Origin: an uncultured virus (IMG/VR IMGVR_UViG_3300032030_000023)
Taxonomy: Duplodnaviria > Heunggongvirae > Uroviricota > Caudoviricetes
IMG/VR virus record: IMGVR_UViG_3300032030_000023
Coordinates: 1-64,000 of that record
DNA length: 64,000 nucleotides
Strand: one strand, 5' to 3'
Made by a program: the position numbers and the translations under genes. Positions 8,248 to 27,568 of this stretch are shown here, in pieces. Below the pieces are notes generated by a model, which was not told where the DNA came from, made no database searches, and worked only from the letters and a program-made list of their open reading frames with translations. Position 1 is the first letter of the stretch; each line of letters begins with the position of its first letter.

Positions 8248-8284
8248 ATTATATTATTTAGGTCTACTTTGTGTCGTTTATATG

Positions 8285-8309
8285 AATCTATAATATACCT
8301 AAACTAGAG
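8285..8309 (+). repeat. 25-bp inverted repeat (fibre A leader), partner 19844-19868
   Basis: aatctataatatacctaaactagag is the exact reverse complement of 19844-19868. Confidence 0.9.
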
Positions 8310-8327
8310 CGTAGGAAATAGACACAA

Positions 8328-10460
8328 ATGCCAACATCACTCTCAAATATCACTGTTAAAGATTCTGCACATTCTCTTGTAATCAAATCAAACGATATTA
8401 CTATTGATGGTACTAGTATACTTGGACAAAATAATTTTGTCACTCTTGATACAGCACAAACGATTTTGGGTAAAAAAACATTTAGTACTGAAATTATTCA
8501 AAATAAATCAACAAGTGGATATACAGGTTTTTATTCACAAAATACGGCTATTACAAGAGGAACCACTCCTTCTTCAAATTCTGGTATTACTATAGGATTA
8601 CAAGATTCAACGGGATTAAATTCATCTGGAAGATTAGCTGCATTTCAATTACAGTATAATACAGATGGTAATATACAAGCGTCTATGATAGCTGGTGAAC
8701 CAGTCTCAGGTAGTAGTGATAATGCGAGAATTAGTTTATTTAATACTGCTACGGGTACAGCTTATACATCAGCTCCAACACCTATGGAAGATACAACCAC
8801 ATCAAAACAAATTGATACTGTAGGTGCAAGAAATACTAAATTATATAAAGGAATTACTAACTGTATTACATATATCCCGCAAGACATTAAGTTAGAGATA
8901 AACTCAAATGGGAAAGCTGTATTAAAGGCAGGGAGTAAGGTTTATGTACCGAATGGGTTTACAGGAACAACACCAAAATTTGATGTTAATACTATTGCTA
9001 GTGATATTACTTATAATTTTCAATCATCACAGAATGGAAAATATTTACTAGCAAACCATAACAACGGACAAAATGCTGGCTGGTCTAAAGCTAACCTAGC
9101 GGAAAGTGGAACGAGTACAGAATCAAATACTTCATTTTATTATAGAACAGATGATAATAAAGTATATTATCTAAATGATTCTTCAGGCGGTATTTACACA
9201 CTTCCTTTGGCTATTGTAAATTTAACAAATGGTGTTGCAACTATAGATCAAGTCTTTAACGGCTTTGGTTATATTGGTTCAACAGCATTTGCACTTCCTG
9301 GAGTTAAAGGACTTATACCTAATGGCAGAAATGAAGATGGAAGTTTGAAGAATATTGAGTTTATAACAAGTACAGTATATACGAGAAATTTAACACAAAC
9401 TGGTACATACTATATGGGATTAACAGTATCAGGAATTGCAGTGTCAAATTTAACAAATAGCTCATATAATGAAAATGAAAACATAAATTATTCAGGGACA
9501 GTTAAATGGTTTGCTTCTCCATATTGTATTTGTCTTTTATCATCAGGTGTCATTACATCTCTCACTCCTAAAACCCCATTCCACGCAGTTGATTATAATG
9601 ACTTTTCAGACTTGAAAGATATTGTAGATAACACTGTGAAGCTGACAGGTAACCAGACCATTAATGGGGCTAAAACATTTACTGCTTCACCCGTTATAAG
9701 TAATAACATTACTGATACTTCATTATTTTTTAAAGATACAGGTATTGCTTCAAATTCAACAGTACCTACAGCTGACAGATTACGTTCTTTTAGAGTTATG
9801 GCGAATGACAATACGATATTAGGAGACGTAAGATTCGTTAGACAGTCATCAGGAAATGTAACATCACAACTAACTTGTAGAAAAGTTATAGATGGAACTC
9901 AATATAATTCTGCAGTAACAGCAAATGTTTCATCAACAGGTATTATATACGGAACTTGTCCAACGCCTCCGGCTGTTTCTAATACAACTGATGCTTATAT
10001 AGCAACAACAGCATGGTGTAATGACCCAATAAAAAGTACTAATGTAGTTCATAGAAATGGTAATGAAACCATTGGTGGTACAAAGACATTTAATACTACT
10101 TATACATCATTCAAAGGAACAGCCATTGATATTACAAATGCAAAAACTACACAAAATGATGTAGGGATAAACTGGCTAGATAAAAATGGAACAGTTTTAG
10201 GACAAAATCATATTAGAACAGACACTACAGGCTCTGTTGCAAATAGTATGTATATCAAAGCTCATAATAGCAATAGTTGGGTGAGTATCACTGTCGGTTT
10301 TGATACTAATGATAATGTCTATACACATGCTCCGACGCCAGCTGTTTCTAGTAATAATACTAATATAGCAACTACGGCTTATGTAAACAATAAGTTTCAA
10401 GTTGTATCTGCACTACCAGCTTCTCCTGATAGTAATGTTTTCTACTTTATACCAGCTTAG
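8328..10460 (+). CDS. tail fibre protein A
   Basis: T/S/N/G-rich with VxLTGNQTIxGxKTF and PTP..IATT repeats; conserved N-terminus MPTSLSNITVKD and C-terminus QVVSALPASPDSNVFYFIPA. Confidence 0.85.
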   Translation: MPTSLSNITVKDSAHSLVIKSNDITIDGTSILGQNNFVTLDTAQTILGKKTFSTEIIQNKSTSGYTGFYSQNTAITRGTTPSSNSGITIGLQDSTGLNSSGRLAAFQLQYNTDGNIQASMIAGEPVSGSSDNARISLFNTATGTAYTSAPTPMEDTTTSKQIDTVGARNTKLYKGITNCITYIPQDIKLEINSNGKAVLKAGSKVYVPNGFTGTTPKFDVNTIASDITYNFQSSQNGKYLLANHNNGQNAGWSKANLAESGTSTESNTSFYYRTDDNKVYYLNDSSGGIYTLPLAIVNLTNGVATIDQVFNGFGYIGSTAFALPGVKGLIPNGRNEDGSLKNIEFITSTVYTRNLTQTGTYYMGLTVSGIAVSNLTNSSYNENENINYSGTVKWFASPYCICLLSSGVITSLTPKTPFHAVDYNDFSDLKDIVDNTVKLTGNQTINGAKTFTASPVISNNITDTSLFFKDTGIASNSTVPTADRLRSFRVMANDNTILGDVRFVRQSSGNVTSQLTCRKVIDGTQYNSAVTANVSSTGIIYGTCPTPPAVSNTTDAYIATTAWCNDPIKSTNVVHRNGNETIGGTKTFNTTYTSFKGTAIDITNAKTTQNDVGINWLDKNGTVLGQNHIRTDTTGSVANSMYIKAHNSNSWVSITVGFDTNDNVYTHAPTPAVSSNNTNIATTAYVNNKFQVVSALPASPDSNVFYFIPA

Positions 10461-11860
10461 GCAGGAATGTAATAAAATACGTTAGAGTCCGGGCTAGCAG
10501 GTAAAGCTGAAACTACCTGATGTTTATTATTAACATATGCAGTTGTCGCAGCAGTAGCCTCATTTGAAGAAGTAGCAGGTGTAGGTAAGTTCACTTTACT
10601 ATTAAATATTGCGACGCTATTACCATCTGACAGAACTTGTAAAACTAATTGAGAATAAGCTGAACTCGTTTTGCCGTTTGCTCTAATCGCAAAGATTCTA
10701 TTTTCACTTGTATCTACATTTAAATTAATATATCCTAATTGAGTAGAAGAAGCATCATACCACTCTATAAATCTTTGTGTACTTGTAGAAGTTGGTGTTC
10801 CATTAGTATAGGCTTTATTAAATAGTCTTATTTGTGCATATGAATTTGATGTGTTACCATTACCAAGTATTATTTGATTGTGTGCTGTGACCCAATTACT
10901 CATATTAAATTGTGAAAGATCACTGTGTAGTTTTTGTAATTCTAAACCTTTAGCACCATTTGATAAATAATGTATCCCTAAATAAGCAAGACGAGTGTTA
11001 TTATTTCCTCTAAAATCATAACCTACATATTGATTTGATGAAGGAGTAGAACCTGGAGTAATACTATTATTTTGAGCAATAAAATTAACTGGTCCAGTAA
11101 TAGCCGCTACATAATTACTTATATCAAAATGTGCTGAAGAGGCTATTTGTGGAGAATTTTGATTTTTATGAGCTATTAAATCTAAATAAGTATAATATTG
11201 TGTACTGTTAGAAGGATCACCGTTTTGAACACATAAATGACAACCTACTGCATCATTAGTATATTGTCTCATTTGCATAAAAAATGTTCTACTACCGTTT
11301 TTATCAGCTTGTATATAATAATTATTTCCCCATGTATCTGCTGTTAAGGTTTTTGTTTTATCTATAGTAGTATTAATCTGCTGTATACTTAAATTACTAA
11401 GACGTGATTGTACCCAAGCAGTAGTAGCAATTCGTGAGGTACTGTCTGATACTGAAGAAGGAGTTGGAGCTTCTGCATAAGATGTTCCGTCTGATTTTAT
11501 ACCTACTCGAATAGCAGCATAACCATTTCCATTTTGTTGTCTTGCGTATAAACTTTTTCTATAAGTACCATCTGTTAAATGTTCGCATTCTAATCCACCT
11601 AACCAAATATTATTTTTATCTGTAAATCCAATGGAACTAATAGTTTGTTCAGATGGAGCAGTAGTCCAATCATCATTCATACCTTTCTTATAAAATACTT
11701 CTCTGAACCATTTATGAGCTTTTATATCTTGATCAGTATCTAGTGTGACAAAATTATTTGTAGCAAGAATAGATGAACCATTTATAGTAATATCATTAGC
11801 TTTAACTATAAGTGTGTTAGTACCATCTTTTACTGTAATATTACTTAAACTTGTTGTCAT
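10457..11860 (-). CDS. tail fibre protein B
   Basis: same N- and C-terminal motifs; convergent with A with overlapping stop codons. Confidence 0.85.
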   Translation of the reverse strand: MTTSLSNITVKDGTNTLIVKANDITINGSSILATNNFVTLDTDQDIKAHKWFREVFYKKGMNDDWTTAPSEQTISSIGFTDKNNIWLGGLECEHLTDGTYRKSLYARQQNGNGYAAIRVGIKSDGTSYAEAPTPSSVSDSTSRIATTAWVQSRLSNLSIQQINTTIDKTKTLTADTWGNNYYIQADKNGSRTFFMQMRQYTNDAVGCHLCVQNGDPSNSTQYYTYLDLIAHKNQNSPQIASSAHFDISNYVAAITGPVNFIAQNNSITPGSTPSSNQYVGYDFRGNNNTRLAYLGIHYLSNGAKGLELQKLHSDLSQFNMSNWVTAHNQIILGNGNTSNSYAQIRLFNKAYTNGTPTSTSTQRFIEWYDASSTQLGYINLNVDTSENRIFAIRANGKTSSAYSQLVLQVLSDGNSVAIFNSKVNLPTPATSSNEATAATTAYVNNKHQVVSALPASPDSNVFYYIPA

Positions 11861-11931
11861 TTTTCGTCTATTCCTTGTACTCTAATTCAGATATATTATA
11901 GATTCGTATAGAGTGTTAAAAATAGACTTAA
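11861..11931 (-). repeat. diverged copy of the fibre A/C leader
   Basis: minus strand tatacgaatctataatatatctgaattagag..aatagac aligns with the A leader, mostly by transitions. Confidence 0.75.
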
Positions 11932-11951
11932 TTTAACTTAAAGTATTGTTT

Positions 11952-12227
11952 TTAATGAATAATGAAGCCTGGAGATAGAACTACTATTTTACCTTTTTTA
12001 TTTTTAGCATATAAAGCGGATTTTGGTTTACCATGATCTATCCAATATTTAACAAGTAAAATATGAAAATGATTAAAAGGATTATGAGATTTTTCAAAAT
12101 GAGGACAACTGCAAGTTTTAAGATCTGCAGATACAAAAAAAGAAGAGACTAAAACTGAATTTATTTTTTCATGTACAAAGTATCCATTTATTTCTTCATC
12201 TACGATACTTTCTTCAATAAGATACAT
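11952..12227 (-). CDS. SWIM-like zinc-finger protein
   Basis: CSCPHF...HFHIL; start moved to MYLIEE on RBS position. Confidence 0.5.
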   Translation of the reverse strand: MYLIEESIVDEEINGYFVHEKINSVLVSSFFVSADLKTCSCPHFEKSHNPFNHFHILLVKYWIDHGKPKSALYAKNKKGKIVVLSPGFIIH

Positions 12228-12353
12228 ATTAATTCCTTTTTCCTTTTTATAACAATAATACATTATATTAGAACATTAATTTTCATAAAAAATTATAAAG
12301 AAAAAGAGTGTATTAACGAAAACACACTCTCTAACAAACATATTAATTAAAAA

Positions 12354-12992
12354 TTACATAAGACCTATACATAAACCGAATGTAAAGCCATGTAAAATTT
12401 CAGCTAAATTTTTAGGCTCATTTATAGTTAATTTTACAAACATAGAATTAGTATATAATGATGGAAATTTAGCAAAAAGTTTATGACAACTTAAATAAAT
12501 AGGATACATACATAAAATAAGAATTAACCATAACCAAGAATGGTATAAAATCATAGCAGGTAATAAACCAACTAATGCACGCATACTACTATAAATCCAG
12601 TCATATACACCATAGTATTTATGAATATGATAAGGTAAATGTAACAGATCTTCTACAACCCAATTTATAAAACGAACGATCTGATTACATAAAGGACGAA
12701 ACCATAAGCTGTAAGAGTCGCGATTTTGTACTCCACTTTGGCCAGAATCTATGATCTCTCCTATTGACCTAGACCAGTACTGTACTATGATATACAGAGA
12801 TGTAGCAGCAATAGAGAAAGCTTTCCAGAATTCGTTATTAATAGTTACACTCATCTGTATATGCATTAGTACAAAACCAAGAGCCATAATTCCGATCATT
12901 TCTTGAGTAGCTCTAGAAAGTATCTTTTTAAATTTACCTTCTCCAAAAAGACGTCTCCAAAGAGCCCAAAACATTCCACATAATAAACTCAT
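12354..12992 (-). CDS. multi-pass membrane protein
   Basis: several hydrophobic segments. Confidence 0.6.
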   Translation of the reverse strand: MSLLCGMFWALWRRLFGEGKFKKILSRATQEMIGIMALGFVLMHIQMSVTINNEFWKAFSIAATSLYIIVQYWSRSIGEIIDSGQSGVQNRDSYSLWFRPLCNQIVRFINWVVEDLLHLPYHIHKYYGVYDWIYSSMRALVGLLPAMILYHSWLWLILILCMYPIYLSCHKLFAKFPSLYTNSMFVKLTINEPKNLAEILHGFTFGLCIGLM

Positions 12993-13136
12993 TATTTTTA
13001 ACTCCAGTATTAATAATATATATACTTATTAGAACTATTCAAAAGCTTGTTTTAATTAGCATTTTGTTATATAACTATTAGGTCTCATTTTAAGCTCATA
13101 CAGTGATGATATGTCATTTTACTATAAGTTATAAAG

Positions 13137-13169
13137 AAAAGACCCAAAACGTTAATTCTGGGTCATTTT
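13137..13169. terminator. intrinsic terminator
   Basis: gaccca / tgggtc stem flanked by A and T runs. Confidence 0.5.
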
Positions 13170-13192
13170 AGTAACTATTTTTGTTATATTTA

Positions 13193-13588
13193 TTATGAAT
13201 CTTTTTTGCTACAGATATGATGTGCTAGTTTTTTAGCAGATTGTTCCAAAGGATAGAGAATTCCACCTGTTGTTTTTAAGAATTCGTAGATTTTTTGTTC
13301 TACTTGTTCTTCGTTATTTGAGTCTTCTGTTATTTCTTTAGGACTCATTACTTTTTTAATATAATTCCATACTTTTTGTGTAACTTCTTCTTGTTGTTCA
13401 TCTGATAGTTCATTAAAAGAATGTGAATGATAATTTGCTATTTCATTAAGAAAATCTTTTACGCTTTCATAATCTTTAGCCTTTAATATCATATTACTTT
13501 CAATGTAGTTTAACTTTTTAATGATAGTATTTGCGATTCTGCTTAGAGGATTAATTGCTTCCATAAATGCTTGACGTGTAATAGACAT
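13193..13588 (-). CDS. hypothetical protein
   Basis: 131-aa ORF translationally coupled to the upstream gene. Confidence 0.55.
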   Translation of the reverse strand: MSITRQAFMEAINPLSRIANTIIKKLNYIESNMILKAKDYESVKDFLNEIANYHSHSFNELSDEQQEEVTQKVWNYIKKVMSPKEITEDSNNEEQVEQKIYEFLKTTGGILYPLEQSAKKLAHHICSKKDS

Positions 13589-14415
13589 TAGAATTCTCCT
13601 TTAAGACTTTTTAGATAATCAATAACTTCATTAAGTTTATCTTTAGCTTCTTGTGAATATACTGTCAATACCATATCTTCTATTTTCATGATATCAAAGT
13701 CTAAATCACTATTTCTATCTTCTTGTCTTTCAACAGCAGGATCTTTACTATTTACTAATATATTTTCTATTGCTTCAATAGTTCCTTGTTCTAATCCAAA
13801 GTTTATTTTTACTCCCCAAAGATATTTATCTACTTCTTCAGCAGTCATGTCTTGAGGAAATCTGTCAAGCATATTATAAACTTCTTCTTTCTGTCTATCA
13901 TCTAATGCAACAGTTTGAAAGATAGCATATTCAACTTTATCTTTATTATAAAGTCTATTTTCAGCTACATTCTCTTCAAAAGCTTGCACTGATTCTGTTA
14001 GAGATTCTTTTACAGTTTTATCTTCTTTTTCTTTATTATCATCTGTATTTTCTTCAGACGTAATTTCAGAATTTTCAGTATCTTTACCTGTATTAGCTTC
14101 TTCTACACCATCTTCAAATGCTTTTTTAATAGTATCTACTTTAGACATTTGTGTTGTTAATTGAGCAAGATGTTTTACTTCTTCTCTTTTAATATCTTCT
14201 AATGTATCGTGAAAAAGCTCTACTAATGATTTTGTAGTTACATTTTCTTCTAAAGCTAATATTTGGTCATACTCATTACAAGCAGAAGTTTCACTAGAAA
14301 TAGCTCCCATAATAGCTTGCTTATACTGTTCATCATAAGTGATATCTACAGTATTTGTATCTAGTGGATTTACTTCTGCTTCAGTCAGAGTTTTCTTTTT
14401 AGGAATAAATCTCAT
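13588..14415 (-). CDS. ferritin-like domain protein (probably virion-associated)
   Basis: AISSETSACNEY ... IKREEVKH (ExxH) helical pattern, acidic C-terminus. Confidence 0.5.
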   Translation of the reverse strand: MRFIPKKKTLTEAEVNPLDTNTVDITYDEQYKQAIMGAISSETSACNEYDQILALEENVTTKSLVELFHDTLEDIKREEVKHLAQLTTQMSKVDTIKKAFEDGVEEANTGKDTENSEITSEENTDDNKEKEDKTVKESLTESVQAFEENVAENRLYNKDKVEYAIFQTVALDDRQKEEVYNMLDRFPQDMTAEEVDKYLWGVKINFGLEQGTIEAIENILVNSKDPAVERQEDRNSDLDFDIMKIEDMVLTVYSQEAKDKLNEVIDYLKSLKGEF

Positions 14416-14432
14416 AACATTACTTCTTTTTT

Positions 14433-15143: not shown

Positions 15144-15298
15144 TTATTTTTATCCTTATTAAAAACTCGAGTATATTTGTAGGGATTATTATGTTTTTCT
15201 TTTAAAGACTTACGCTTTTTATCTTTTTCATATCTTTGCATATATTCAACGAAGCGCTTATATGTAAATTTAGAAGATATTTCGTTATCGTCTTTCAT
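15140..15298 (-). CDS. small basic hypothetical protein (52 aa, below ORF-track cutoff)
   Basis: MKDDNEISSKFTYKRF...NKDKNK; aaggt RBS; ATGA overlap with the next gene. Confidence 0.5.
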   Translation of the reverse strand: MKDDNEISSKFTYKRFVEYMQRYEKDKKRKSLKEKHNNPYKYTRVFNKDKNK

Positions 15299-15367
15299 AA
15301 GTTAAACCTTTCTTTTACTTTTATTTAGAACTTCATCATAAATAGAACTTAATTATAACGCTAATTT

Positions 15368-16624: not shown

Positions 16625-16757
16625 TTATACATTAAGCTGGAATATAATAAAATACATTTGCATTCGGACTAGCTGGTAATGCAGAAACTACTTGATGCTT
16701 ACTGTTACAGTAAGCTGTAGTAGCTATTTTGGTACTGTTATCAGATACTGCTGGTGT
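16606..16757 (+). repeat. ~150-bp direct repeat, partner 23896-24047
   Basis: covers the 3' ends of fibres C and E plus the 30 nt encoding YLQKNGFIH*. Confidence 0.85.
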
Positions 16758-19700
16758 CGGAGCTTCAGTATAAAAAGAACCAGAAGCGTTGCATGATATT
16801 CCCAGAGTAGCACCGCTATTAGTTCCAGCAACAGGCGATTTTACAAACAAACGTGAAGAAACACTCCCATCTGTGTACATTCCTGTATATACTGAACCCA
16901 TTTCAACATTATTTTTATCAGTAATTCTAGAACCGCCATAACAGTTTGAGCTAGGAGCAGTGCCTTGCGTATAAACGCTAGATTGATATCTTACACGCAT
17001 ATCACCGTCTTTTAAAACTATTGGAACATTACTAAAAGTCTTAGTACCTGCAATAGTTTGATTTCCTGTTAATTTAACACAGTCAGAAGTATCGCCACTA
17101 GCACTTCCGTATTCTTGGAATTTACCATTAGTATAAGCATATATTTTATCTTGTGGACAGAAATAGCATTGGTAAGTAGAGTACGTATAACCGATAGGAA
17201 TGTAAAATTTATTATCAGCACTACTCGGAACAGTTGTCGTTACTAATGTTGAATCAATTGTCGCTGTTACACCATTAAGAGCAGATAATACTAAGTAGAC
17301 TGTTGCATATTGAGTACCTGTCCAAGATGAATTACCTGTTATATCTCTGACACTTCTACCTGATATTGCTCTAAAATTATTAGTACCTGTACCTGATGCA
17401 CTAATAGCTGAGCCAGCCACCAGAATTGGATAGCTTATATCAAAAGTAATTCCACTGCCTATGTTTTTATAACCAGCAGAAGTTCCTACAATAGCCCTCC
17501 CTGCTGTAATAGCCGTTGCGGCTTTAATATTATTAGCAATTTGAAGTCTATCAGTAGTATTACTGTCTAAATCGCCTATTAATTGATAATATGTGCCATC
17601 ATAAACAAATACGTATGTACGATTAATTCTTAAATATCCTTTATTAATAGCACTGCCACGATACTGAATAGCTTTTGCACCTGTACTATTAACATTAAGT
17701 GTCGGATTGTCTGCACCATTGGCTTCTGCTGTAAACTTAACAAAAATAACTGCACCAGTTTCTAACTTAAATCCCGTACACGCAACTACTTTTTCTTGTG
17801 TAGCTGCTGCTGTATCACAAGTACCATAATGAGTAATATTAGCAGAACCATCAAACTCAACACCATCTATCGTTCGTTTAGTAGTTAGCTTAGCAGCAGA
17901 ACCAGTAATACTACCAGACGATGTGATATATCCTTGAGCCTTAACGAAAGCAGTAGTAGCGATTTTAGTTGAGTTATCAGATGTAGCAGGTGTAGGAGCG
18001 TAAGTAAATACATTTTTATTTTGGTCGTAACCAATTGTTAATTTCGCGTCATTTGTTGAACCTGATGTTGGTTCAAATACTGCTAAATTTAATGTGGAAA
18101 CTCCGTTTGAGTTATAATCATGATAGATTTGAGCCATTTTATTAGTTTGAGCAGTTCCATTTTTATCATAAACAGTTCCAAACCATCCATCTATTGTACT
18201 TGTTGGAGCTGTACCTTTACTTATACCAGAATATTGCATGTAAAGATTAGGTTGAGTCATCTTTATTGTTGGAGTACTAGTAAAAGTCTTATTCCCAGCA
18301 ATAGTTTGGTTACCAGTAAGCTTAACAACATCACTATCAGCAGCTTTTGCATTCAAAGCGTTTTGTAAGTCTGTTTGATTTGATAATGTACCTGTAACTG
18401 ATCCCCAAGTAGCTTGACCACCAGAACTATATCCTTGTGCTTTAACCCAGGCAGTAGTAGCAATCTTTGTGGAGTTATCAGAAGTAGCTGGTGTAAGTGT
18501 AGTTAAATACTCACTAGTATCTCCTAAAAATAATTTTTTCCAAGAAGTCCATGTTCCATTTTTACAAGACCTAAAATATATACAACTCTCCTTAGCACCA
18601 TAATATTTTTGAAAGATAATGTGATCAGTTGACGAAAAATTCCTTATCATAGATGTTTCTAATAAAAAGGTATCTTGGTCTGCTATTGGTTTGTCTGTTA
18701 TGTTAGCACTCGCACCATTAGAAGTACAATAATAATATAATGTTTCACTACTACCAGTTGAAACACAATCATTTAAACTTATTGTTTGGAAAGATATATT
18801 TTTACCTCTAAATACACCATTGAAATATAGTGCATCATTTATAGTTTTATTTCCATTTATAGTTTCATCACCGCTTCTGTGAACAACGTTTGTAGATGTT
18901 GCTGGATTATTTACCCAACCCATTGTTGCTAAAAGGGTATCTGATGTTGAGGAAGTTGAATATACTAAATTATAGTTATAAGTATTTGATAAATTTCCTC
19001 CACCTGTATATATTAATGCGAAATTTTGACCATCATCAGCAATCATATTTCTAAGGTCAGCATATGAAGTATTTTCGCCATATTTGTGTGCTCTAAACCA
19101 ATAGCCTGTTTGTGATTTACCTTCTTGCGAATTATAGCTACGATAATTATATAAAGAAGTAACAGAATTATTAGTTAAATCTGTTGCTTCTAAAATAACA
19201 TGCGCTGAGGACTTAGTAAGTTCAGAAAAATCACTATACCCTTTTAGTTTATATATAGCACCACTTGTTAATGTTAAGTTTCCACTCTTTTCTTCATTAC
19301 CAGTTCTATGAATAACATTTGTACTGGTATCTGGATTGTTTACCCAACCTTTAGTTGGTACTTCTGTATCTGTTGTTGCACTAACGACTCTCGTTAAGGA
19401 TAAGTTTGTTCCATTACCATTAATACTAGCCGTAAATGCTCCATTATCACGATTTTGAACTTCAATATACCCTTCTTTATTTGAAGTTGCATTAACAGTA
19501 TTTAATCTATTATATAAAGCACCATTGACATAATATGATGATTGATTAACACTACCCTTTCCATTAGTATCAGTTAAATTAAATAAAGCAGTTCCCCCAC
19601 TACCTAAGTTAGCTGTTCTTTGAATGGCAGAACTAAAGGTTTTAACACCAGATATACTTTCATTACCAGTTTTGTGTACTACATCTGCATCGTTAGCTTT

Positions 19701-19811
19701 ATTATTTATCTGTGTTTGTATACTAGTACCATCTATTGTGATGTCGTTTGATTTAACTATGAGTGTATGACTTGAATCTTTTACTGTGATATTTGATAAA
19801 GAGGTAGGCAT
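16632..19811 (-). CDS. tail fibre protein C (longest)
   Basis: same N- and C-terminal motifs, repeated fibre modules, TIDGVEFDGSANIT motif. Confidence 0.88.
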   Translation of the reverse strand: MPTSLSNITVKDSSHTLIVKSNDITIDGTSIQTQINNKANDADVVHKTGNESISGVKTFSSAIQRTANLGSGGTALFNLTDTNGKGSVNQSSYYVNGALYNRLNTVNATSNKEGYIEVQNRDNGAFTASINGNGTNLSLTRVVSATTDTEVPTKGWVNNPDTSTNVIHRTGNEEKSGNLTLTSGAIYKLKGYSDFSELTKSSAHVILEATDLTNNSVTSLYNYRSYNSQEGKSQTGYWFRAHKYGENTSYADLRNMIADDGQNFALIYTGGGNLSNTYNYNLVYSTSSTSDTLLATMGWVNNPATSTNVVHRSGDETINGNKTINDALYFNGVFRGKNISFQTISLNDCVSTGSSETLYYYCTSNGASANITDKPIADQDTFLLETSMIRNFSSTDHIIFQKYYGAKESCIYFRSCKNGTWTSWKKLFLGDTSEYLTTLTPATSDNSTKIATTAWVKAQGYSSGGQATWGSVTGTLSNQTDLQNALNAKAADSDVVKLTGNQTIAGNKTFTSTPTIKMTQPNLYMQYSGISKGTAPTSTIDGWFGTVYDKNGTAQTNKMAQIYHDYNSNGVSTLNLAVFEPTSGSTNDAKLTIGYDQNKNVFTYAPTPATSDNSTKIATTAFVKAQGYITSSGSITGSAAKLTTKRTIDGVEFDGSANITHYGTCDTAAATQEKVVACTGFKLETGAVIFVKFTAEANGADNPTLNVNSTGAKAIQYRGSAINKGYLRINRTYVFVYDGTYYQLIGDLDSNTTDRLQIANNIKAATAITAGRAIVGTSAGYKNIGSGITFDISYPILVAGSAISASGTGTNNFRAISGRSVRDITGNSSWTGTQYATVYLVLSALNGVTATIDSTLVTTTVPSSADNKFYIPIGYTYSTYQCYFCPQDKIYAYTNGKFQEYGSASGDTSDCVKLTGNQTIAGTKTFSNVPIVLKDGDMRVRYQSSVYTQGTAPSSNCYGGSRITDKNNVEMGSVYTGMYTDGSVSSRLFVKSPVAGTNSGATLGISCNASGSFYTEAPTPAVSDNSTKIATTAYCNSKHQVVSALPASPNANVFYYIPA

Positions 19812-19843
19812 TATATAAGTCCTTGTTTTGTCTATATTTTTAT

Positions 19844-19889
19844 CTCTAGTTTAGGTATATTATAGATTGATATAAAAGGAAAGAAGTAG
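19844..19889 (-). repeat. composite leader of fibre C: 23-bp repeat shared with F and 25-bp repeat shared with A, overlapping by AA
   Basis: 19867-19889 is the reverse complement of 25252-25274; 19844-19868 is the reverse complement of 8285-8309. Confidence 0.9.
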
Positions 19890-19980
19890 TAATATAATTT
19901 AAAAGAAAATAAATAAAAATCCACTGAAATCCAAAAATATATAACAAACACATACTTTAGCATATAAAACTTTTTTAAGC

Positions 19981-20009
19981 TTTACAAATGTTAAAGATAA
20001 CTATATAAT
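19981..20009 (+). promoter_or_regulatory. sigma70-type promoter of the invertase
   Basis: TTTACA-17 nt-TATAAT. Confidence 0.7.
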
Positions 20010-20065
20010 ATATATCGTAAAAACAAAAATATTAACTTTAATTTTTAGAAAAAGGAAATAATACA

Positions 20066-20707
20066 ATGACAGTATATGCATATCTACGTGTTTCAACACA
20101 ACAACAAGATGAACAAAATCAAAGACTTGGTATTGATAAAAAAGCAGAACAACTAAATCTAACAATAGATAAATACATTATAGATAAGAAATCAGGAGCC
20201 ATTGATCCTAGTGAAAGAAACTTAGGTAAACTACTTAAAAAACTAAAACAAGGAGACATACTACTTATCAGTGAAATATCAAGACTATCACGTAAACTAT
20301 TCTCTCTTTTCAGCATCATAAAAGTACTACTAGAGAAACAAGTCACTATCTATTCAGTAAAGGATGGATATACACTAGATGCATCCATTCAGTCAAAGAT
20401 ACTTGCGTTCGCATTTGGTATTTCAGCCGAATTGGAACGCCAATTACTTTCTCAGAGGACTAAGGAAGCATTGGCTCATAAAAGAGAGCAGGGTGTTATA
20501 TTAGGTCGTCCTAAAGGTTCGAAGTCTTCATATCACAAACTTGATTCACATAAGACAAGATTATTGAATGATTACGAAAAAGGAGCAACTATAACATCAC
20601 TTGCAAAAAGGTATAAAGTCTCTCATAAAACTGTAAAGAAGTATGTAGATCGTTATAGAGGCATTTATCATCTTAAAGTTGAAGAGCAAGTTACTGAAGA
20701 GATTTAA
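20066..20707 (+). CDS. serine recombinase/DNA invertase, Mpi-like
   Basis: YAYLRVST (catalytic Ser), SRLSR, IQSKILAFAFGISAELERQLLSQRTKEAL, LGRPKG, C-terminal HTH. Confidence 0.9.
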   Translation: MTVYAYLRVSTQQQDEQNQRLGIDKKAEQLNLTIDKYIIDKKSGAIDPSERNLGKLLKKLKQGDILLISEISRLSRKLFSLFSIIKVLLEKQVTIYSVKDGYTLDASIQSKILAFAFGISAELERQLLSQRTKEALAHKREQGVILGRPKGSKSSYHKLDSHKTRLLNDYEKGATITSLAKRYKVSHKTVKKYVDRYRGIYHLKVEEQVTEEI

Positions 20708-21650
20708 GTAGAAGTTCTTTATCTTCATCCCAACAGTAGTGGAAGTTTTTACAAGTATATTTAAAGCTTCCACTATTTTTATTTTTATTACACGCTCTAT
20801 AAACAGATGATTTTTTTACTCCTATTTTTTCTGCTAATTTGGCGCCGTTTGTGTAAATTTTATCTTCTTCTAAACAATAGACTTTTGAAAACTTTTTATT
20901 TATAGGAATAGTAAATGTATCTTTATCTTTTAAATAACACCAATGATAACCTTCTGCTGTATGTTTTATTCCTGCACAAACTTTTTGAATGGCTGTTCTA
21001 CAATTAAATTCTTTTTCAGCTTCTGCTATAGTATTGAATATTCTATTTAATTCTACACAATATACAGGAGTTTTATTAGATTTATCTTCTCTTGGTGTAT
21101 ATGTATCTATATCCTTTTCATAACACCAATGCATATTAGCAGAAGTAGTATATTTCTTTTCGCAACAAGCAATTATTCCAGTATCTGTAAAATTATATTC
21201 TGGATATTTTTCACAAAATTCTTTATATGTAAGAGTTTCGTTTAATTCAAAACAATGATATTTACTAACAGTACGTCTTTCATTAAACTCTTTAAATTTT
21301 GTACTATTTTTAAGACCTTCACTTATATGTTTTTTAACTTCTTCTGTATATGCTTTTGATTCTTCTCCGCCCGAAGTTGAATTATAACCTTCATTCATAG
21401 AATTATAATGTTTTATCCAATAAATTTCTTTTTGACTTAATTCTTCTTGTGAATTGCCTTCATCTATTTGTTCAATAATAAAGTTATCTTTACCATATTT
21501 GCGAATAGCATTATGAAACTTATTGTGATAGATATTAGCATTTGCTTTATTAATATGTTGTTTGAAACGTCTTTTTAACTTTTGACGTGTTTGTCCTATA
21601 TAGACTTTATTATTTACTAAGTTTGTAATTTTGTAGATGATACCGTACAT
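20691..21650 (-). CDS. GIY-YIG homing endonuclease with NUMOD1-type repeats
   Basis: GIIYKITN..VYIGQT..RFKQH; repeated VYCxE..F..I.EA modules. Confidence 0.85.
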   Translation of the reverse strand: MYGIIYKITNLVNNKVYIGQTRQKLKRRFKQHINKANANIYHNKFHNAIRKYGKDNFIIEQIDEGNSQEELSQKEIYWIKHYNSMNEGYNSTSGGEESKAYTEEVKKHISEGLKNSTKFKEFNERRTVSKYHCFELNETLTYKEFCEKYPEYNFTDTGIIACCEKKYTTSANMHWCYEKDIDTYTPREDKSNKTPVYCVELNRIFNTIAEAEKEFNCRTAIQKVCAGIKHTAEGYHWCYLKDKDTFTIPINKKFSKVYCLEEDKIYTNGAKLAEKIGVKKSSVYRACNKNKNSGSFKYTCKNFHYCWDEDKELLLKSLQ

Positions 21651-21652
21651 TT

Positions 21653-21889
21653 TTAATATTTTCCGTAGTGAATATAGTCAAATAAATCTTTTTCAATCCC
21701 TTTAAGTTTATTTTCATCTTTTACAATATCGGAATGTACATTTTCTACAATAGTTGTAATTTTTGAGACGAATCCAGAGCCGATTGCAATAAGTGATCCA
21801 TATATTGCCATAATTGAGAGAATTATAGATAAAATATCTGAAATTAATCCAATTTTATCATTTAAATTCATTTTTTGAGTATTCTTCAT
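21653..21889 (-). CDS. small single-pass membrane protein
   Basis: hydrophobic helix; start placed at MKNTQK after aggagg. Confidence 0.5.
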   Translation of the reverse strand: MKNTQKMNLNDKIGLISDILSIILSIMAIYGSLIAIGSGFVSKITTIVENVHSDIVKDENKLKGIEKDLFDYIHYGKY

Positions 21890-22139
21890 TAAGATTCCTC
21901 CTATTTTTGTTAGTTCTAATAATATAAATAGAACCGAAATATTTTTTATTTTTATAAGTAAATACAAAGATAAATTTAAAAAATAAGCAGTTCTAAAAAG
22001 TAATATATGACAAGTTTTCTACTTTATATTGTTATTAAAAATTCTTGAACTTAAAAATACGGATATGCAGTATATATTAAGGATGGTTAATAACGGTATA
22101 TTGTAAAAAAGGATAATAATTAACTAGGTAAATTAAACC

Positions 22140-22172
22140 AACATTTAACATTATAAATCAAGGACTTAGATA
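22140..22172 (+). repeat. 33-bp inverted repeat (fibre D leader), partner 25181-25213
   Basis: aacatttaacattataaatcaaggacttagata, exact reverse complement match. Confidence 0.92.
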
Positions 22173-22173
22173 G

Positions 22174-23391
22174 ATGCCAACTTCTCTTTCAAATATTAAG
22201 GTTACAGATGGACAAAATAATCTTGTAATTACAGGAAACGATATAACAATAAATGGTACATCTATTTTAGGACAAAACAATTATGTTACATTAGATACTA
22301 CTCAGACTATTACAGGAGTAAAGACTTTTAGTAATACTATAAAAAGTACAAGACAAGGAGATGGTATTTTTTTAACTAGAAAAAGTAGTACAGATAGTAC
22401 AGGAGATGCATTTGTAGATTTAAAATTTTTTGATACATTAGGTAATAGAAAAGGTGGAGTTAGAAATATACTTGAAAATGGAAATACTACTTGTTTATAT
22501 GTAACAAACGAAGCTGGAAATGCTATTAAAAATACATTAAACCTAGTATATAATGAATCATCTGATAGAGTATATACAAGTATAATTAATCCAGAAATTA
22601 ATTCTCTTAATTTAAGAACAAACCAATATAATTGGGGTACAAATCCAACTACTGGTACAGATTTACTATCACATAATTTTAGAGATAATACCGATACTCC
22701 TGTTGTTTCTAATAGACCATATTTATCATCAAATGGTGATCGATATTATTTTATATCTGTTATTAATAAAGAAAAAACAAAATATACTGAATTAGCTGTT
22801 GGTTGGGATGCATCTGGAAATGCAAATACTGTTGCTCCAATTCCAACGTCTACTACTTCTACATCTTCTAGACAAATAGCTACTACTGGATGGGTAAATA
22901 CAGTTGGTAATAATGTTGTGCATTTAACTGGTAATGAAACTATAACAGGAGCTAAATGGGTTAATAATAGTTATATAATAAGAGGTAATGGTGAAATTCA
23001 ATTTACAGATACAACCGGATATACACCATCCAATCCACCTTCTGAAAGTAAAGCTTTTGGTACATTACGCTGGGGAGTAGGCTGTACAGCTGGTAATACT
23101 AGTTGGTTAAGTGGTGGTTCTGAATTATTAAAAATACAACCAATTATATCATCACAAGGAAAAGTAAATGTTGCTTTCGTAGTGTTTGATAGTTCTGGTA
23201 ATAGTAAGGAATTATTAGACTTATATTCTACTGCGGATGGAAGTGATGCTGCAGCTATAACTATTACACCTTCTAATGCAGATAATTCTAGAAAAATAGC
23301 TACGACTGCGTATGTAAATAATAAGTTACAAGTCGTATCAGCTTTACCAGCATCTCCTGATAGTAATACATTCTATTTTATTCCTGCATAA
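22174..23391 (+). CDS. tail fibre protein D
   Basis: shared N- and C-terminal motifs, VHLTGNETITG. Confidence 0.85.
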   Translation: MPTSLSNIKVTDGQNNLVITGNDITINGTSILGQNNYVTLDTTQTITGVKTFSNTIKSTRQGDGIFLTRKSSTDSTGDAFVDLKFFDTLGNRKGGVRNILENGNTTCLYVTNEAGNAIKNTLNLVYNESSDRVYTSIINPEINSLNLRTNQYNWGTNPTTGTDLLSHNFRDNTDTPVVSNRPYLSSNGDRYYFISVINKEKTKYTELAVGWDASGNANTVAPIPTSTTSTSSRQIATTGWVNTVGNNVVHLTGNETITGAKWVNNSYIIRGNGEIQFTDTTGYTPSNPPSESKAFGTLRWGVGCTAGNTSWLSGGSELLKIQPIISSQGKVNVAFVVFDSSGNSKELLDLYSTADGSDAAAITITPSNADNSRKIATTAYVNNKLQVVSALPASPDSNTFYFIPA

Positions 23392-23448
23392 TAATTATTA
23401 AAAAGTTCTATACATATATATCATTAAAAAATAAATGAGAATGTATAG

Positions 23449-23925
23449 ATGCCTATATGGAGAAGAATATTACAAGGAACTAAAAAAGTATCTCCTGCTG
23501 TACAAAGAAATGTATCTAATATAGCAAGAATATCTAACTTAGATTTAAGATATGATGAGGGTGTAAAAACTTTAACTTTTTATGCTAATGTAAAATCATC
23601 TACGTTTAATACATTCTATTCTGTTATTATTACATTCAAAGGTGTAGAAAGAACAGATGGTTTAACAGAAGATGAAATTAACAAAGGATTTCAACCAAAA
23701 CCTACACTATCAAAAAATGAAGTAATGATCCGCTGTTCTTGTAATAATTACAGATTTCGTTTTGATCAAGCTAACAGAAAAAATAAAGTAGGTACTGGTG
23801 CTAGATTTCCAATATATAGAAGAAAAACAAATAGAAAACCATATAATCCACATATGATAGCAGGTACATGTAAACATGTTATAGAATTATTAGATTATCT
23901 TCAAAAAAATGGTTTTATACACTAA
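23449..23925 (+). CDS. SWIM zinc-finger protein
   Basis: CSC...CKH motif; GTTCTA motif upstream (~23405). Confidence 0.65.
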   Translation: MPIWRRILQGTKKVSPAVQRNVSNIARISNLDLRYDEGVKTLTFYANVKSSTFNTFYSVIITFKGVERTDGLTEDEINKGFQPKPTLSKNEVMIRCSCNNYRFRFDQANRKNKVGTGARFPIYRRKTNRKPYNPHMIAGTCKHVIELLDYLQKNGFIH

Positions 23926-25178
23926 GCCGGAATATAATAAAATACATTTGCATCTGGACTGGCTGGTAATGCAGAAACTACTTGATGCTTATTATTACAA
24001 TAAGCCGTAGTCGCGATTTTCGTACTATTGTCTGATACTGCTGGAGTAACATCTAAACTTATATAATCATTATTAAGATATATTTTGCGATTATTTCCTG
24101 TTGTTCCATCTTGTGGTCTTAATTGGATACCTGTTGCATTGTTTGTTCCTTGTATTACTAAACACCCTCCTACATTACCATCTCCAACTTTTACATCATC
24201 ACCTATATTGTTCAAAATATTGTTTGCAAATTGAACAGCACTACTAAATGCTTTAGTACCACTAATAGTCTGATCACCATTCAATGTTACATAGTTTGAT
24301 AAACTTTGATGAGAAGTAAGATATCCTTGTGCTTTGACAAATGCAGTTGTTGCAATCTGTGTAGAGTTATCAGAAGTCGCGGGAGTAGGGGCGTAAGTAT
24401 AAACCGTTCCATCTCTTTTTGCTATAACTCTGATTGCTGCGTCATATGCTACATCCGAAGAATTTAAATTCGTCGCAATCATAGATGCTTGTATTTCATT
24501 ACTTGTTGTTTGTGTTACATAAAAATTACCAATTTGTGCATTGTTTTTATCTCTAATGAGCCAACTAGTATATTGAGTAGATGACGGAGCTGTTCCTCTT
24601 GTAATAGTTGAACTTTTTCTTATTGCATCCATACTATGTATTGTGTTTTCACTAAAGGTTTTAGTACCTGTAATAGTTTCATTTCCTGAAGTATGTACTA
24701 TTCCATTTCCGGCTGTTTTAACCCATGCAGTAGTAGCGATCTTAGTACTATTATCAGTTACAGCAGGTGTAATAGCTGTAGTATAACCATTATCGTTAGA
24801 ATCACAACCAATATTTAGCATTCCTTTATTATTACCGTTTTTATCATAAACTAAAAATCTAATTTCCCTTTCAGTAGAAGTATCTCTTAAATATATATCA
24901 CTCAGTACTAAAGCATTTTTATCAAGAAACTTACAGTGTGTATAATTTGCTGTAGATGGATTTACAGTTCTATCCATACCAGTATTTTTAAACTGAATAA
25001 AAACAGTATCAGTACCTCTAGTAATTGATTTTACACCTGTAATCTCTTGGTTTGTATCTAACGTTACAAAGTTATTAGTAGCTAATATACTACTTCCATT
25101 AATTGTAATATCATTAGCCTTAACAACTAATGTATTTTGTCCATCTTTTACCGTTATATTACTTAATGAAGTAGTCAT
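23922..25178 (-). CDS. tail fibre protein E
   Basis: shared N- and C-terminal motifs; N-terminus nearly identical to B. Confidence 0.85.
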   Translation of the reverse strand: MTTSLSNITVKDGQNTLVVKANDITINGSSILATNNFVTLDTNQEITGVKSITRGTDTVFIQFKNTGMDRTVNPSTANYTHCKFLDKNALVLSDIYLRDTSTEREIRFLVYDKNGNNKGMLNIGCDSNDNGYTTAITPAVTDNSTKIATTAWVKTAGNGIVHTSGNETITGTKTFSENTIHSMDAIRKSSTITRGTAPSSTQYTSWLIRDKNNAQIGNFYVTQTTSNEIQASMIATNLNSSDVAYDAAIRVIAKRDGTVYTYAPTPATSDNSTQIATTAFVKAQGYLTSHQSLSNYVTLNGDQTISGTKAFSSAVQFANNILNNIGDDVKVGDGNVGGCLVIQGTNNATGIQLRPQDGTTGNNRKIYLNNDYISLDVTPAVSDNSTKIATTAYCNNKHQVVSALPASPDANVFYYIPA

Positions 25179-25180
25179 AT

Positions 25181-25213
25181 TATCTAAGTCCTTGATTTAT
25201 AATGTTAAATGTT
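25181..25213 (-). repeat. 33-bp inverted repeat (fibre E leader)
   Basis: reverse complement of 22140-22172. Confidence 0.92.
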
Positions 25214-25251
25214 ACTTTAATTGACTTATTTTAGAAATTATATATAATGAT

Positions 25252-25274
25252 CTACTTCTTTCCTTTTATATCAA
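25252..25274 (+). repeat. 23-bp inverted repeat (fibre F leader)
   Basis: ctacttctttccttttatatcaa, reverse complement of 19867-19889. Confidence 0.9.
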
Positions 25275-25306
25275 CATTAAAAATATTATAGGACTTAGAC
25301 AAAAAT

Positions 25307-27568
25307 ATGCCTACATCTGCTTCAAACATAATTGTGAAAAATGGTACAAAAAATACAGTAGTATCTGCTGATGATATTAATATTAACGGTACTTCTGTAA
25401 TTACTACTTTAAGTTCTAAACAAGACGTTTTAACTCCTGGTACCGGAATTGATATTACCAATAACGTTATCTCCTCTACATTAAACTCTGCACAATGGGG
25501 TAATATTACCGGTACCATCTCTAATCAAACAGACTTACAAACAGCCTTAGATAATAAACAAAATGTAGCAACTGCTGTAAATTATGACAACATCACTAAC
25601 TGTATTACATATATTCCACAAGATATTAAACTTGAGCTGAATAATGGTACTCTGACATTAAAAGCTGGTTCTAGAGTTTATGTACCAAATGGGACTAATA
25701 CTTTTGATGAAGTTGTGATTAGCGAAGATATTTCACTTAGTAATAAAACTTCTACTAGAAAGATACAATCATTAATTTTAATGAGGATTAATAAATCGAG
25801 TTTGGAGATTTGGAATGTAAATGATAGTTATTCTGGTACGACTCAACCAACGGCTACATATCAATGCTGGTATAATACAACCAATAATACAATAAAGTCA
25901 TCAGTGAATGGTGGTAGTACATACGGTGTTAATTTGTCTTTACCACTTTGTATTGTTTCTGTTGATTCAACGGGTATGACATCTATAGACCAAGTCTTTA
26001 ATGGCTTTGGATATATTGGCTCAACAGTCTTTGCTTTACCTGGTATACAATATTTATACTCTAATGGTAGAAATGAAAATGGAACATTAAAGAATATTAC
26101 TAATACAACATCCTCTGTTCTGACTTTTACTTGGAATCCGGGTTTATGGGGTAATAATTTCCCCGTTGTATTAGATTTGTATGGTGTTGAGTTTTTGGGT
26201 AATGAGAATACTTTTATTGGGGGCGAAAGACCAGAAAATCCCTCAGCTTATACACGTTGGTATAATAAAGAAGAAAATCAATGGTACATTTATGTTACAT
26301 ACTGGGATAAAGCATATTTGTGCATTTATTCTTATGTTGACCTCTCTAACGGCAAAGTTGTTGGGTTTAGAACAAAAACAGCCTTTCATGCAGTAGATTA
26401 TAATGACTTCTCTGACTTGAAAGATGATGTAGAAGCTAACACTAATACTTTAGAGTATAAACAAGATGAAGCCACTGCTGTCAACTATGACAACATCACT
26501 AACTGTATAACAGAAATTCCACAGAATATACAACTTGAGTTGAATAATGGAACGCTGACACTAAAAGCAGGAAGTAAAGTATATGTGCCAAATGGTGCAG
26601 GTGTGTTTACGCTTGTTACAACTACATCAGATGTTTCAAGAAGCGAATTTGGTACAACAACTGGAAATAATCTATATTTAGAGGGAGTATACGGAGGTGG
26701 TACTATTTCGGCTATTTCTTGGTCTCTACAAAGCAATACATCAAGTGGCACAACATCACCAGCATCAGGTATATTCTATAATACAAGCACAAATTATATA
26801 AATAGGTATGTTGAAGGAGAAGCAAAAGACCAAAGAAGTTTTCCGCTTGCGCTAATAACACTTGATAATGGAACACCGACAAGTATAGACCAAGTCTTCA
26901 ATGGCTTTGGTTATATTGGCTCAACAGTCTTTGTTCTTCCTGGTGTTAAAGGATTAATTCCAAATGGTAGAAATGCGGATGGTACACTGAAGAGTATTGA
27001 GTTAAGTTTTTCAAAAGTTGTAACACAGACAAACAATGTTACATATTCCGGAGATATAGCTATAACTTCGGATTATTTTGATTTGGCACAAGGTAATATG
27101 TATAATGAAAAAGATAATAGAAATTATCTTTCTGATGGTGTAACACCATTTAATAGGTGTATTGCGGGAAAATTTGTTAAGGGAACAAACGGTGTCATCA
27201 CTTCTCTTACTCCTAAAACAGTCTTTCGTGCTCTTGACTACAACGACAGCTCTACAATATCAGGTTGGTCTATGCCATCAAGTAGGTATATAGACTTAAC
27301 CCTTGGCGCTAGTGGTGCAAATTATACAGCTCCGGCAAATGGGTGGATATTTTTTGCAAAAGCCTCCGATTCATCAGGTCAGTTTAATGCTATTACTAAT
27401 AGTACAGGCGGTGGTTTAAGAAGCGACTGTACTGCATCTAGTTCAGGACAGTGGGCGACTGTTAACTGTCCTGTAAAAAGAGGAGATATATTTAGTATTG
27501 AGTATACAACATCAGGAGAAACAAAAAGATTCCGTTTCATTTATACTGAGGGAGAAAGTTCTAATTAA
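25307..27568 (+). CDS. tail fibre protein F (two tandem copies of the domain also in A; distinct C-terminal tip)
   Basis: MPTSASNI N-terminus; ITNCIT.IPQ...IDQVFNGFGYIGST twice; ends LTLGASGANYTAPANGW..PVKRGD. Confidence 0.85.
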   Translation: MPTSASNIIVKNGTKNTVVSADDININGTSVITTLSSKQDVLTPGTGIDITNNVISSTLNSAQWGNITGTISNQTDLQTALDNKQNVATAVNYDNITNCITYIPQDIKLELNNGTLTLKAGSRVYVPNGTNTFDEVVISEDISLSNKTSTRKIQSLILMRINKSSLEIWNVNDSYSGTTQPTATYQCWYNTTNNTIKSSVNGGSTYGVNLSLPLCIVSVDSTGMTSIDQVFNGFGYIGSTVFALPGIQYLYSNGRNENGTLKNITNTTSSVLTFTWNPGLWGNNFPVVLDLYGVEFLGNENTFIGGERPENPSAYTRWYNKEENQWYIYVTYWDKAYLCIYSYVDLSNGKVVGFRTKTAFHAVDYNDFSDLKDDVEANTNTLEYKQDEATAVNYDNITNCITEIPQNIQLELNNGTLTLKAGSKVYVPNGAGVFTLVTTTSDVSRSEFGTTTGNNLYLEGVYGGGTISAISWSLQSNTSSGTTSPASGIFYNTSTNYINRYVEGEAKDQRSFPLALITLDNGTPTSIDQVFNGFGYIGSTVFVLPGVKGLIPNGRNADGTLKSIELSFSKVVTQTNNVTYSGDIAITSDYFDLAQGNMYNEKDNRNYLSDGVTPFNRCIAGKFVKGTNGVITSLTPKTVFRALDYNDSSTISGWSMPSSRYIDLTLGASGANYTAPANGWIFFAKASDSSGQFNAITNSTGGGLRSDCTASSSGQWATVNCPVKRGDIFSIEYTTSGETKRFRFIYTEGESSN

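Follow-up and report, generated by a model that had tools for sequence, protein, structure and literature searches.

A putative whole-gene tail-fibre inversion switch in an uncultured myophage, associated with a phage clade of Mpi-like serine invertases

Introduction

Can a phage invertase move whole tail-fibre genes, and not only their 3′ ends, from one expression context to another? The question is raised by an array of six paralogous fibre genes (A to F) around a small serine recombinase gene in the uncultured virus IMGVR_UViG_3300032030_000023 (Caudoviricetes). The stretch analysed here, hereafter the window, is the first 64 kb of this 124,640-bp record, whose CheckV completeness is 52%. 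We observed that every fibre gene is preceded by a candidate crossover site, that similarity between these sites breaks at one invariant dinucleotide, and that close relatives of the enzyme are associated with inversion of fibre DNA at a related core. We propose that the locus is a phage fibre inversion switch which differs from others in its whole-gene layout and depends on an enzyme from a phage clade of Mpi-like invertases; its activity in this phage is putative.

Systems of this kind include Min, the multiple-inversion system of plasmid-prophage p15B, which is akin to Gin of Mu, Cin of P1 and Pin of e14. In the Hin/hix system of Salmonella, the invertible H segment carries the recombinase gene together with an outward promoter.

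A first-pass annotation of this DNA, made from the letters alone, had suggested an Mpi-type enzyme acting on repeats upstream of complete genes, in a nested multi-site switch of a large myophage. The last point is borne out by a tail sheath gene at 4949–6910 (phrog_23, 8e-55), which identifies the record as a fragment of a large myophage. The GC content of the window is about 28% and no tRNAs were found in its 64 kb.

Results

Six complete fibre genes surround an intact small serine recombinase

All six fibre genes are intact open reading frames (ORFs) located where the annotation had placed them (Table 1). An N-terminus of about 40 aa (MPTSLSNITVKDG..NDITINGTSIL) aligns across the six proteins, and tblastn with the first 45 aa of A hit exactly six places in the 124,640 bp with E values of 6e-26 to 9e-7, the next being 0.12. 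The C-terminal end, approximately the last 40 aa (..QVVSALPASPDSNVFYFIPA; ..ATTAYVNNKxQVVSALPASPDSNVFYFIPA), is common to A–E and absent from F. Pfam BppL_N is matched by four of the six proteins, three of them exceeding its cut-off; PHROG tail and fibre matches are weak. As the stop codons of A and B overlap (10457–10460), the conserved stretches that encode their C-termini face each other directly as an inverted repeat (10335–10549); this coding end is also present at C, D and E. The N-terminal coding repeats (95–126 nt, 71–78% identity) have scrambled synonymous positions, and flipping by homologous recombination between them was judged unlikely.

The recombinase ORF was likewise found amid the fibre genes, with the peptide quoted for it present in its translation. 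It matches PF00239 over residues 3–144 (5.2e-30), HTH_7/23/28 at 160–199 and the phrog_125 DNA invertase (2.5e-41). Its YLRVST motif aligns with YVRVST of Gin, and R8 and S10 are invariant among 16 relatives. From its sequence the enzyme looks functional.

The enzyme is Mpi-like but lies outside the clade of true Mpi

The NCBIfam Mpi model NF009949 gave a match over its full length with 224.6 bits (E 9.6e-67), below the curated cut-off of 272 bits, while Bacteroidales genome proteins scored 280–326 bits. Identity to Mu Gin was 32% over 146 aa. We then placed the enzyme in a quick IQ-TREE phylogeny of 96 rows (this enzyme, 10 metagenome relatives, 75 genome-contig relatives, 8 fetched loci, Mu Gin and the invertase of Bacteroides phage B124-14; 4 duplicates and 1 partial sequence were left out), with SH-aLRT support and no bootstraps. 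It fell in an 11-row clade with 99% SH-aLRT; all five proteins above the NF009949 cut-off grouped in a separate 58-row clade, and Gin was a far outgroup on a very long branch. The Mpi assignment therefore stands at the level of the broad family, as the enzyme is nearer to Mpi than to Gin, but not at that of the equivalog.

In 50,697 phage records, tblastn at E 1e-5 or better returned 7 records, with Mu and P1 absent among them; the closest cultured-phage invertase, that of B124-14, is 42% identical and sits among replication genes. Recombinases 41–58% identical to the enzyme (loci L014–L093) also occur in gut and rumen metagenome-assembled genomes of Alphaproteobacteria, Bacteroidota, Spirochaetota, Bacillota, Fibrobacterota and others, and frequently lie less than 1 kb from the end of a contig, which fits assembly breaks at invertible DNA.

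Related recombinases invert fibre DNA at a common core

The clade-mate recombinases are 54–59% identical to this enzyme, and their neighbours encode tape measure, baseplate, tail tube and tail fibre or collar proteins. The inverted repeats beside them have a common core, (A/G)A-C-N-TTTAAT-YT-R-CC, with perfect copies in 5 of 10 clade-mates. Thirteen of 14 core matches with at most one mismatch (loci L004, L005, L006, L008 and L012) read in frame as (T/S)FN(L/I)P and are followed by an open frame of 92–127 aa. In each locus a single site is preceded by a long ORF (389 aa in L012, 256 aa in L006), the others having 6–71 aa in front of them. Judged by this organization, the clade-mate loci are a fibre gene with silent C-terminal cassettes, served by classical 3′-cassette fibre-shufflon invertases. 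Further arrays were found among viral contigs, with 4 sites in L108, 3 in L114 and 2 in L115.

Inversion itself was observed in one of these relatives. L107 and L012 represent one phage of about 203 kb that was assembled twice, with 99.98% identity over 19,057 nt. Past the core at 19033, the L107 sequence goes on as the right half of the opposite-strand L012 site at 19687; this difference is a real inversion. In L111, the right half of an L110 site follows a left flank unlike that in L110. In L114 (11212–14072) and L115 (13192–10332), contigs about 93% identical, we noted an inverted 2.9-kb block, one end of which abuts a TFNLP-type site; the L115 recombinase match ends at residue 115.

The nearest relatives are thus cis-linked tail-fibre shufflon invertases that swap 3′ cassettes, and not trans-acting promoter invertases of the Mpi type named in the annotation. 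No dispersed site pairs were found in the record (52% complete). The same evidence bears on whether the recombinase serves a role unrelated to fibres, such as resolving genome multimers, mobilising the neighbouring homing-endonuclease cassette or acting on host DNA. Its gene overlaps a GIY-YIG homing endonuclease gene (20691–21650) by 17 nt at its 3′ end, and the B124-14 invertase lies away from fibre genes; but all readable close clade-mates adjoin tail or fibre genes and the family core sits in a fibre leader (see below), making such a role very improbable.

One further homologue has a different arrangement. L010 (GC 0.28) has a 46%-identical homologue of the window gene 2532–3590 and an exact 20-nt inverted repeat (2475–2494 and 2739–2758) that encloses about 245 bp directly ahead of its recombinase gene, a segment that may be an invertible promoter. 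We considered this repeat as a counterpart of the sites described here and obtained no convincing alignment.

Similarity between candidate crossover sites in the fibre leaders breaks at an invariant AA

Each fibre gene has a 28-bp candidate site (13 + AA + 13) with an invariant central AA, 32–56 nt upstream of its ATG, and the short dyad around the AA occupies corresponding positions in the six leaders (Table 1). The six sites, three per strand, have the same polarity relative to their genes. The 12-nt core of the relatives, STTTAATYTRCC, has 2 perfect matches on both strands of the 124,640 bp, where 30 shuffles gave 0.1 on average. The left half of site D is one of them (22127–22138, minus strand); it falls within the 51-nt, 90% inverted repeat around D and E and is spaced from the AA by two bases, as in AA-C-N-TTTAAT of the relatives. 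The right half common to D and E, AACATTTAA, is the start of the L108 sites. Matches with at most one mismatch were absent from all fibre ORFs in the whole record and, within the array, were limited to the site-D half-site. The left half of site D also reads as a dead mini-ORF, MLFNLPS*, which from its reading may be a relic of a coding TFNLP-type site. The other perfect match, at 80244–80255 outside the window, lies inside a 99-aa ORF (80062–80361); it lacks the AA-C prefix and is probably due to chance.

Among the leaders, C and F have 21 nt exact distal to the AA and 0 proximal; A and C have 23 nt exact proximal and 0 distal; D and E have 31 nt exact proximal and 0 distal, within a 51-nt inverted repeat of 90% identity containing 33 nt exact. 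In site C, the two exact blocks, one in common with F and the other with A, overlap by the AA alone. Neither the 23-nt C/F block nor the A/B/C block recurs at any other place of the 124,640-bp record. By these alignments the similarity classes break at the invariant AA as a crossover point would. The repeats that the annotation had seen upstream of complete genes are real and conserved, although they form three pairwise classes and not one common leader. An extended motif, T[AT]TAAT[AT]TACCTA, was dropped as a site signature, as 3 of its 6 exact hits are outside the leaders and lie within ORFs.

Table 1. Genes, candidate sites and promoter-like motifs of the fibre array (positions in the window; dyads in gene orientation; slot contexts are from consensus matches only)
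Feature	Position	Strand	Description
Fibre gene A	8328–10460	+	710 aa; N- and C-termini common; BppL_N E 2e-13; slot context: TCTATAAT element in own proximal half
Fibre gene B	10457–11860	-	467 aa; convergent with A; slot context as A
Fibre gene C	16632–19811	-	1059 aa; BppL_N E 1.4e-24; weak PHROG structural and tail matches; slot context as A
Fibre gene D	22174–23391	+	405 aa; ORF and alignment of ends; slot context: two AGTTCTA motifs (21913, 21990)
Fibre gene E	23922–25178	-	418 aa; ORF and alignment of ends; slot context: promoter-less side of 59-bp E/F spacer, no recognisable leftward promoter
Fibre gene F	25307–27568	+	753 aa; N-terminus more diverged; common C-terminal end absent; slot context: TTGACT-16-TATAAT (25221–25248)
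Site A	8272–8299	+	gtcgtttatatg-AA-tctataatatacc; AA 8285–8286; right half 10/12 to family core; dyad TTATA-TG-AA-TC-TATAA
Site B	11890–11917	-	AA 11903–11904; proximal to AA, 11 nt identical to A and C; dyad CTATA-CG-AA-TC-TATAA
Site C	19854–19881	-	AA 19867–19868; left half as in F, right half as in A; dyad TTATA-TC-AA-TC-TATAA
Site D	22127–22154	+	GGTAAATTAAACC-AA-CATTTAACATTAT; AA 22140–22141; dyad TTAAA-CC-AA-CA-TTTAA
Site E	25199–25226	-	AA 25212–25213; mirror of site D; left half 10/12 to core; dyad TTAAA-GT-AA-CA-TTTAA
Site F	25260–25287	+	AA 25273–25274; both half-sites poor; dyad TTATA-TC-AA-CA-TTAAA
Small serine recombinase	20066–20707	+	213 aa; YLRVST catalytic-serine motif; C-terminal helix-turn-helix (HTH)
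GIY-YIG homing endonuclease	20691–21650	-	PF01541 3.5e-12; phrog_314 9e-31; inside C–D segment
158-aa ORF within D–E segment	23449–23925	+	phrog_18980; own AGTTCTA motif at 23405
Sigma-70-like TTTACA-17-TATAAT	19981–20009	+	11/12; 57 nt upstream of recombinase
Sigma-70-like TTGACT-16-TATAAT	25221–25248	+	11/12; in 59-bp spacer between sites E and F; points at F
AGTTCTA-type motifs (two)	21913, 21990 (21913–21995)	+	point at D slot
Other AGTTCTA examples in window	6975, 7694, 13035(-), 16322(-), 23405, 29297(-), 36657, 37725, 40111, 42015		

Promoter-like motifs and a model of whole-gene inversion

Promoter assignments were made by consensus match. The annotation had given the recombinase its own sigma70-type promoter, and an 11/12 match does precede the gene; over the region, though, promoter-like matches are rarer than in shuffles (97 versus 121). 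A different motif, AGTTCTA followed by A/T-rich sequence, recurs in front of many genes. Intergenic DNA makes up 12.4% of the genome and holds 36 of the 101 copies; in 27 of these 36, position -1 is an A. It is probably the phage's own promoter or a regulator site. The A/B/C block, considered as a general late promoter, was rejected, as it is found only at these three leaders and the common intergenic motif is AGTTCTA.

A simple model of the array would involve conservative crossovers made by the 213-aa recombinase at the central AA of the sites of about 28 bp. Given their common polarity relative to the genes, any site of a plus-strand gene (A, D, F) is inverted relative to any site of a minus-strand gene (B, C, E), so that recombination between them would invert the DNA in between, and nine inversions would be possible. 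In each, the whole gene would stay joined to its ribosome-binding site and proximal half-site, and the upstream contexts would be exchanged. The best-supported pair is D/E, bounding a 3.07-kb segment (22141–25212), and its flip would exchange D and E behind the AGTTCTA motifs of the D slot. The C–D segment (19869–22139, 2.27 kb) carries the recombinase gene as well as these motifs; a C/D flip would turn it towards C in a Hin-like manner, feeding C or D. Inversion in this phage, the pairs used and their frequency, activity at all six sites, and the consequences for expression and for the fibres made are what we infer.

Weighing the evidence for and against the switch

Public sequencing runs (n=4, X1–X4) were compared as assembled Logan contigs, not as reads. 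The best match to the window DNA was a sheep-gut run (X1), the probable source of the phage; runs X2–X4 hold partial relatives only, and bovine and goat gut runs carry partial relatives of the phage. In run X3, a 665-nt contig of a relative matches 19867–20217 with 7 differences, and its remaining 314 nt diverge from the window starting exactly at the AA of site C (19867). A swapped proximal half would look like this. The contig joints listed for the public runs are same-strand skips with sides of 20–30 nt in AT-rich DNA, and we judged them spurious.

A number of observations weigh against the switch. Contigs of run X1 are continuous across sites A, B, C and F (records 1, 2, 4 and 6; depth about 15–18), so an abundant alternative form at those sites is unlikely in that sample. 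The X1 contigs end at 22143–22169 and 25184–25210, that is, at D/E, but these ends follow from the 33-nt exact repeat under k=31 assembly and are uninformative on inversion. No inverted junction of the phage itself was seen in the assembled contigs of the four runs, D/E being uninformative. As for the sites, the 16-bp dyad pattern, derived from the leaders themselves, is not rare (strict form 7 versus 3.1 expected, loose form 22 versus 17.3). The half-site match of A and C, with 2 mismatches in 12, is at chance level (96 hits versus 114 expected), and a 15-nt pattern with at most 3 mismatches gave 13 hits versus 17.9 expected, 3 of the 13 being leader sites. Neither half-site of F is good. Since a reciprocal crossover alone copies no half-sites, the exact blocks need duplication or short conversion tracts in addition; the latter may have begun at the break. 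For the relatives, the crossover point can be placed no more narrowly than AAC-N-TTTAAT, and the AA of their sites is partly a codon effect, L004 having CT instead. The promoters too, as said, are consensus matches only.

Some of these observations would be accommodated by a static array, in which the paralogues are all expressed, for example in a multi-fibre or branched apparatus docking via the N-terminus, the leader blocks being regulatory and kept or homogenised by gene conversion, and the recombinase being inactive there or aimed elsewhere. The unbroken X1 contigs and the ordinary frequency of the dyads are as such an array would have them. Also compatible with it are the TATAAT inside the conserved A/B/C block, the 11/12 sigma-70 match at F, and the in-frame TFNLP sites used by the relatives of the enzyme, which the fibre genes here do not have. 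Against this stand a perfect family core in the D leader, where 0.1 is expected in the whole record, three exact blocks all ending at one dinucleotide, an intact enzyme in the middle of the array from a clade tied to fibre inversion, and the departure of the X3 contig at the AA of site C. On balance we consider a static array unlikely.

Another reading keeps the inversion and restricts it to D/E: a two-state switch in which the 3.07-kb flip puts D or E behind the promoters at 21913/21990, with A, B, C and F constitutive and their sites decayed relics. The best half-sites are indeed those of D (12/12) and E (10/12), the D/E inverted repeat is the longest and most similar (51 nt, 90%, 33 nt exact), and the other four sites were without heterogeneity in run X1. 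Such a restriction is hard to match with the C–F and A–C blocks, which abut the same AA, with the X3 contig, which departs at site C and not at D or E, and with the relatives, which are mostly multi-site (3–5 sites in L012, L006, L108 and L114). We regard the two-state switch as quite improbable.

Whether site-specific inversion moves whole fibre genes between promoter contexts at this locus thus appears to us evenly balanced. Of the nested multi-site switch put forward by the annotation, the location of the repeats 5′ of complete genes is upheld; the relatives of the enzyme swap 3′ cassettes in the classical way. A fuller scenario is rather doubtful: a lytic jumbo phage whose six-site combinatorial switch would deal whole receptor-binding genes among promoter-bearing and silent slots around a Hin-like 2.27-kb hub, having evolved from a coding TFNLP shufflon by sites leaving ORFs, with each burst a programmed mixture of fibre sets.

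Relatives of the locus and other features of the record

Relatives with the same layout were absent from the viral contigs queried with the recombinase, the 33-nt D/E block and the fibre alignment, and likewise from those queried with the 311-aa neighbour gene, a 44-nt recombinase stretch and the A/B/C block. The viral-contig search with a recombinase alignment returned only cassette-type relatives, none with this layout. A 263,463-bp contig encodes a protein identical to D. By blastn against cultured phages, 19000–23500 matched homing-endonuclease fragments only. The 158-aa ORF of the D–E segment has a homologue of 32% identity in L012 (11750–12268), where it adjoins the recombinase. A second free-standing GIY-YIG homing endonuclease gene is present in the array (27605–28258, plus strand).

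Elsewhere in the window, GC skew at 46000–50100 is strongly negative (-0.43, -0.32) and then +0.36, and an ORF-free stretch of 1157 nt lies at 48936–50092. This region could be a replication origin or a module boundary.

Discussion

The locus resembles Min, Gin, Cin and Pin in that a phage-borne small serine invertase lies beside tail-fibre genes and in that several inverted sites would allow nested inversions changing receptor-binding proteins. As in a multiple-inversion system, the recombinase is located within the fibre array and at least two inverted sites have a common core. In Min, Gin, Cin and Pin, however, crossover takes place inside the fibre ORF and joins 3′ cassettes to one constant 5′ part (in the Mu record, the boundary of G lies 509 nt into S), whereas the sites here precede the start codons of six complete genes and none lies inside the ORF. 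The enzymes differ as well, Gin being 32% identical to this recombinase, which belongs to the Mpi-like branch.

Closer likenesses are found with the shufflons of the clade (L012/L107, L006/L110/L111, L108, L114/L115, L004, L005 and L008), with which the locus has in common the half-site core C-N-TTTAAT-YT-R-CC preceded by AA, an array of sites (2–5 in the relatives) and a recombinase gene inside or beside it. Their sites are coding, in-frame TFNLP sites that bring silent, start-less cassettes of 92–127 aa onto one long ORF; here the sites are non-coding and whole genes of 405–1059 aa would move.

Mpi of Bacteroides fragilis is of the same broad small serine recombinase family and likewise one enzyme with many expression-controlling sites, but it flips short promoter segments scattered over a bacterial chromosome, while the presumed targets here are clustered whole phage genes. 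The C–D segment would be similar to the Hin system, carrying the recombinase gene and an outward promoter that feeds one of two flanking genes; it differs in its recombinase subfamily, in its size of 2.27 kb, in including a homing endonuclease gene and in being embedded in a six-site network. In the accessible text of PMC10403206, deletion of Mpi locks seven capsule promoters.

Fibre inversion systems of gut or enteric phages have been described. According to the portions of the papers available, the shufflon of a BV01-like Phocaeicola phage, with a TGGGAGAACT core (PMC13596623), and the FRphi shufflon, which uses a gin (PMC13418256), are both active by reads and produce several fibre isoforms; as presented there, they swap C-terminal cassettes of a single fibre gene, in contrast to the whole genes considered here. 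A survey of programmed inversions (PMC9881135), in the part available, describes fibre shufflons in which C-terminal cassettes alone are exchanged. Open-access papers and preprints yielded no phage system whose crossover sites precede complete fibre genes.

The phage fibre inversion systems found in the literature, as far as the accessible text of the papers goes, or among the relatives of the enzyme thus all swap the 3′ end of a single gene. A phage that moves whole genes would be freed from the need for cassettes to fit one shaft. It could then alternate between fibres of very different size and architecture, here from 405 to 1059 aa, and gut phages would have a different means of bet-hedging over host range. 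In addition, the analysis marks out a phage clade of Mpi-like invertases whose site core can be read. Metagenomes can be searched for fibre switches with this core, which also helps to explain assembly breaks near such genes.

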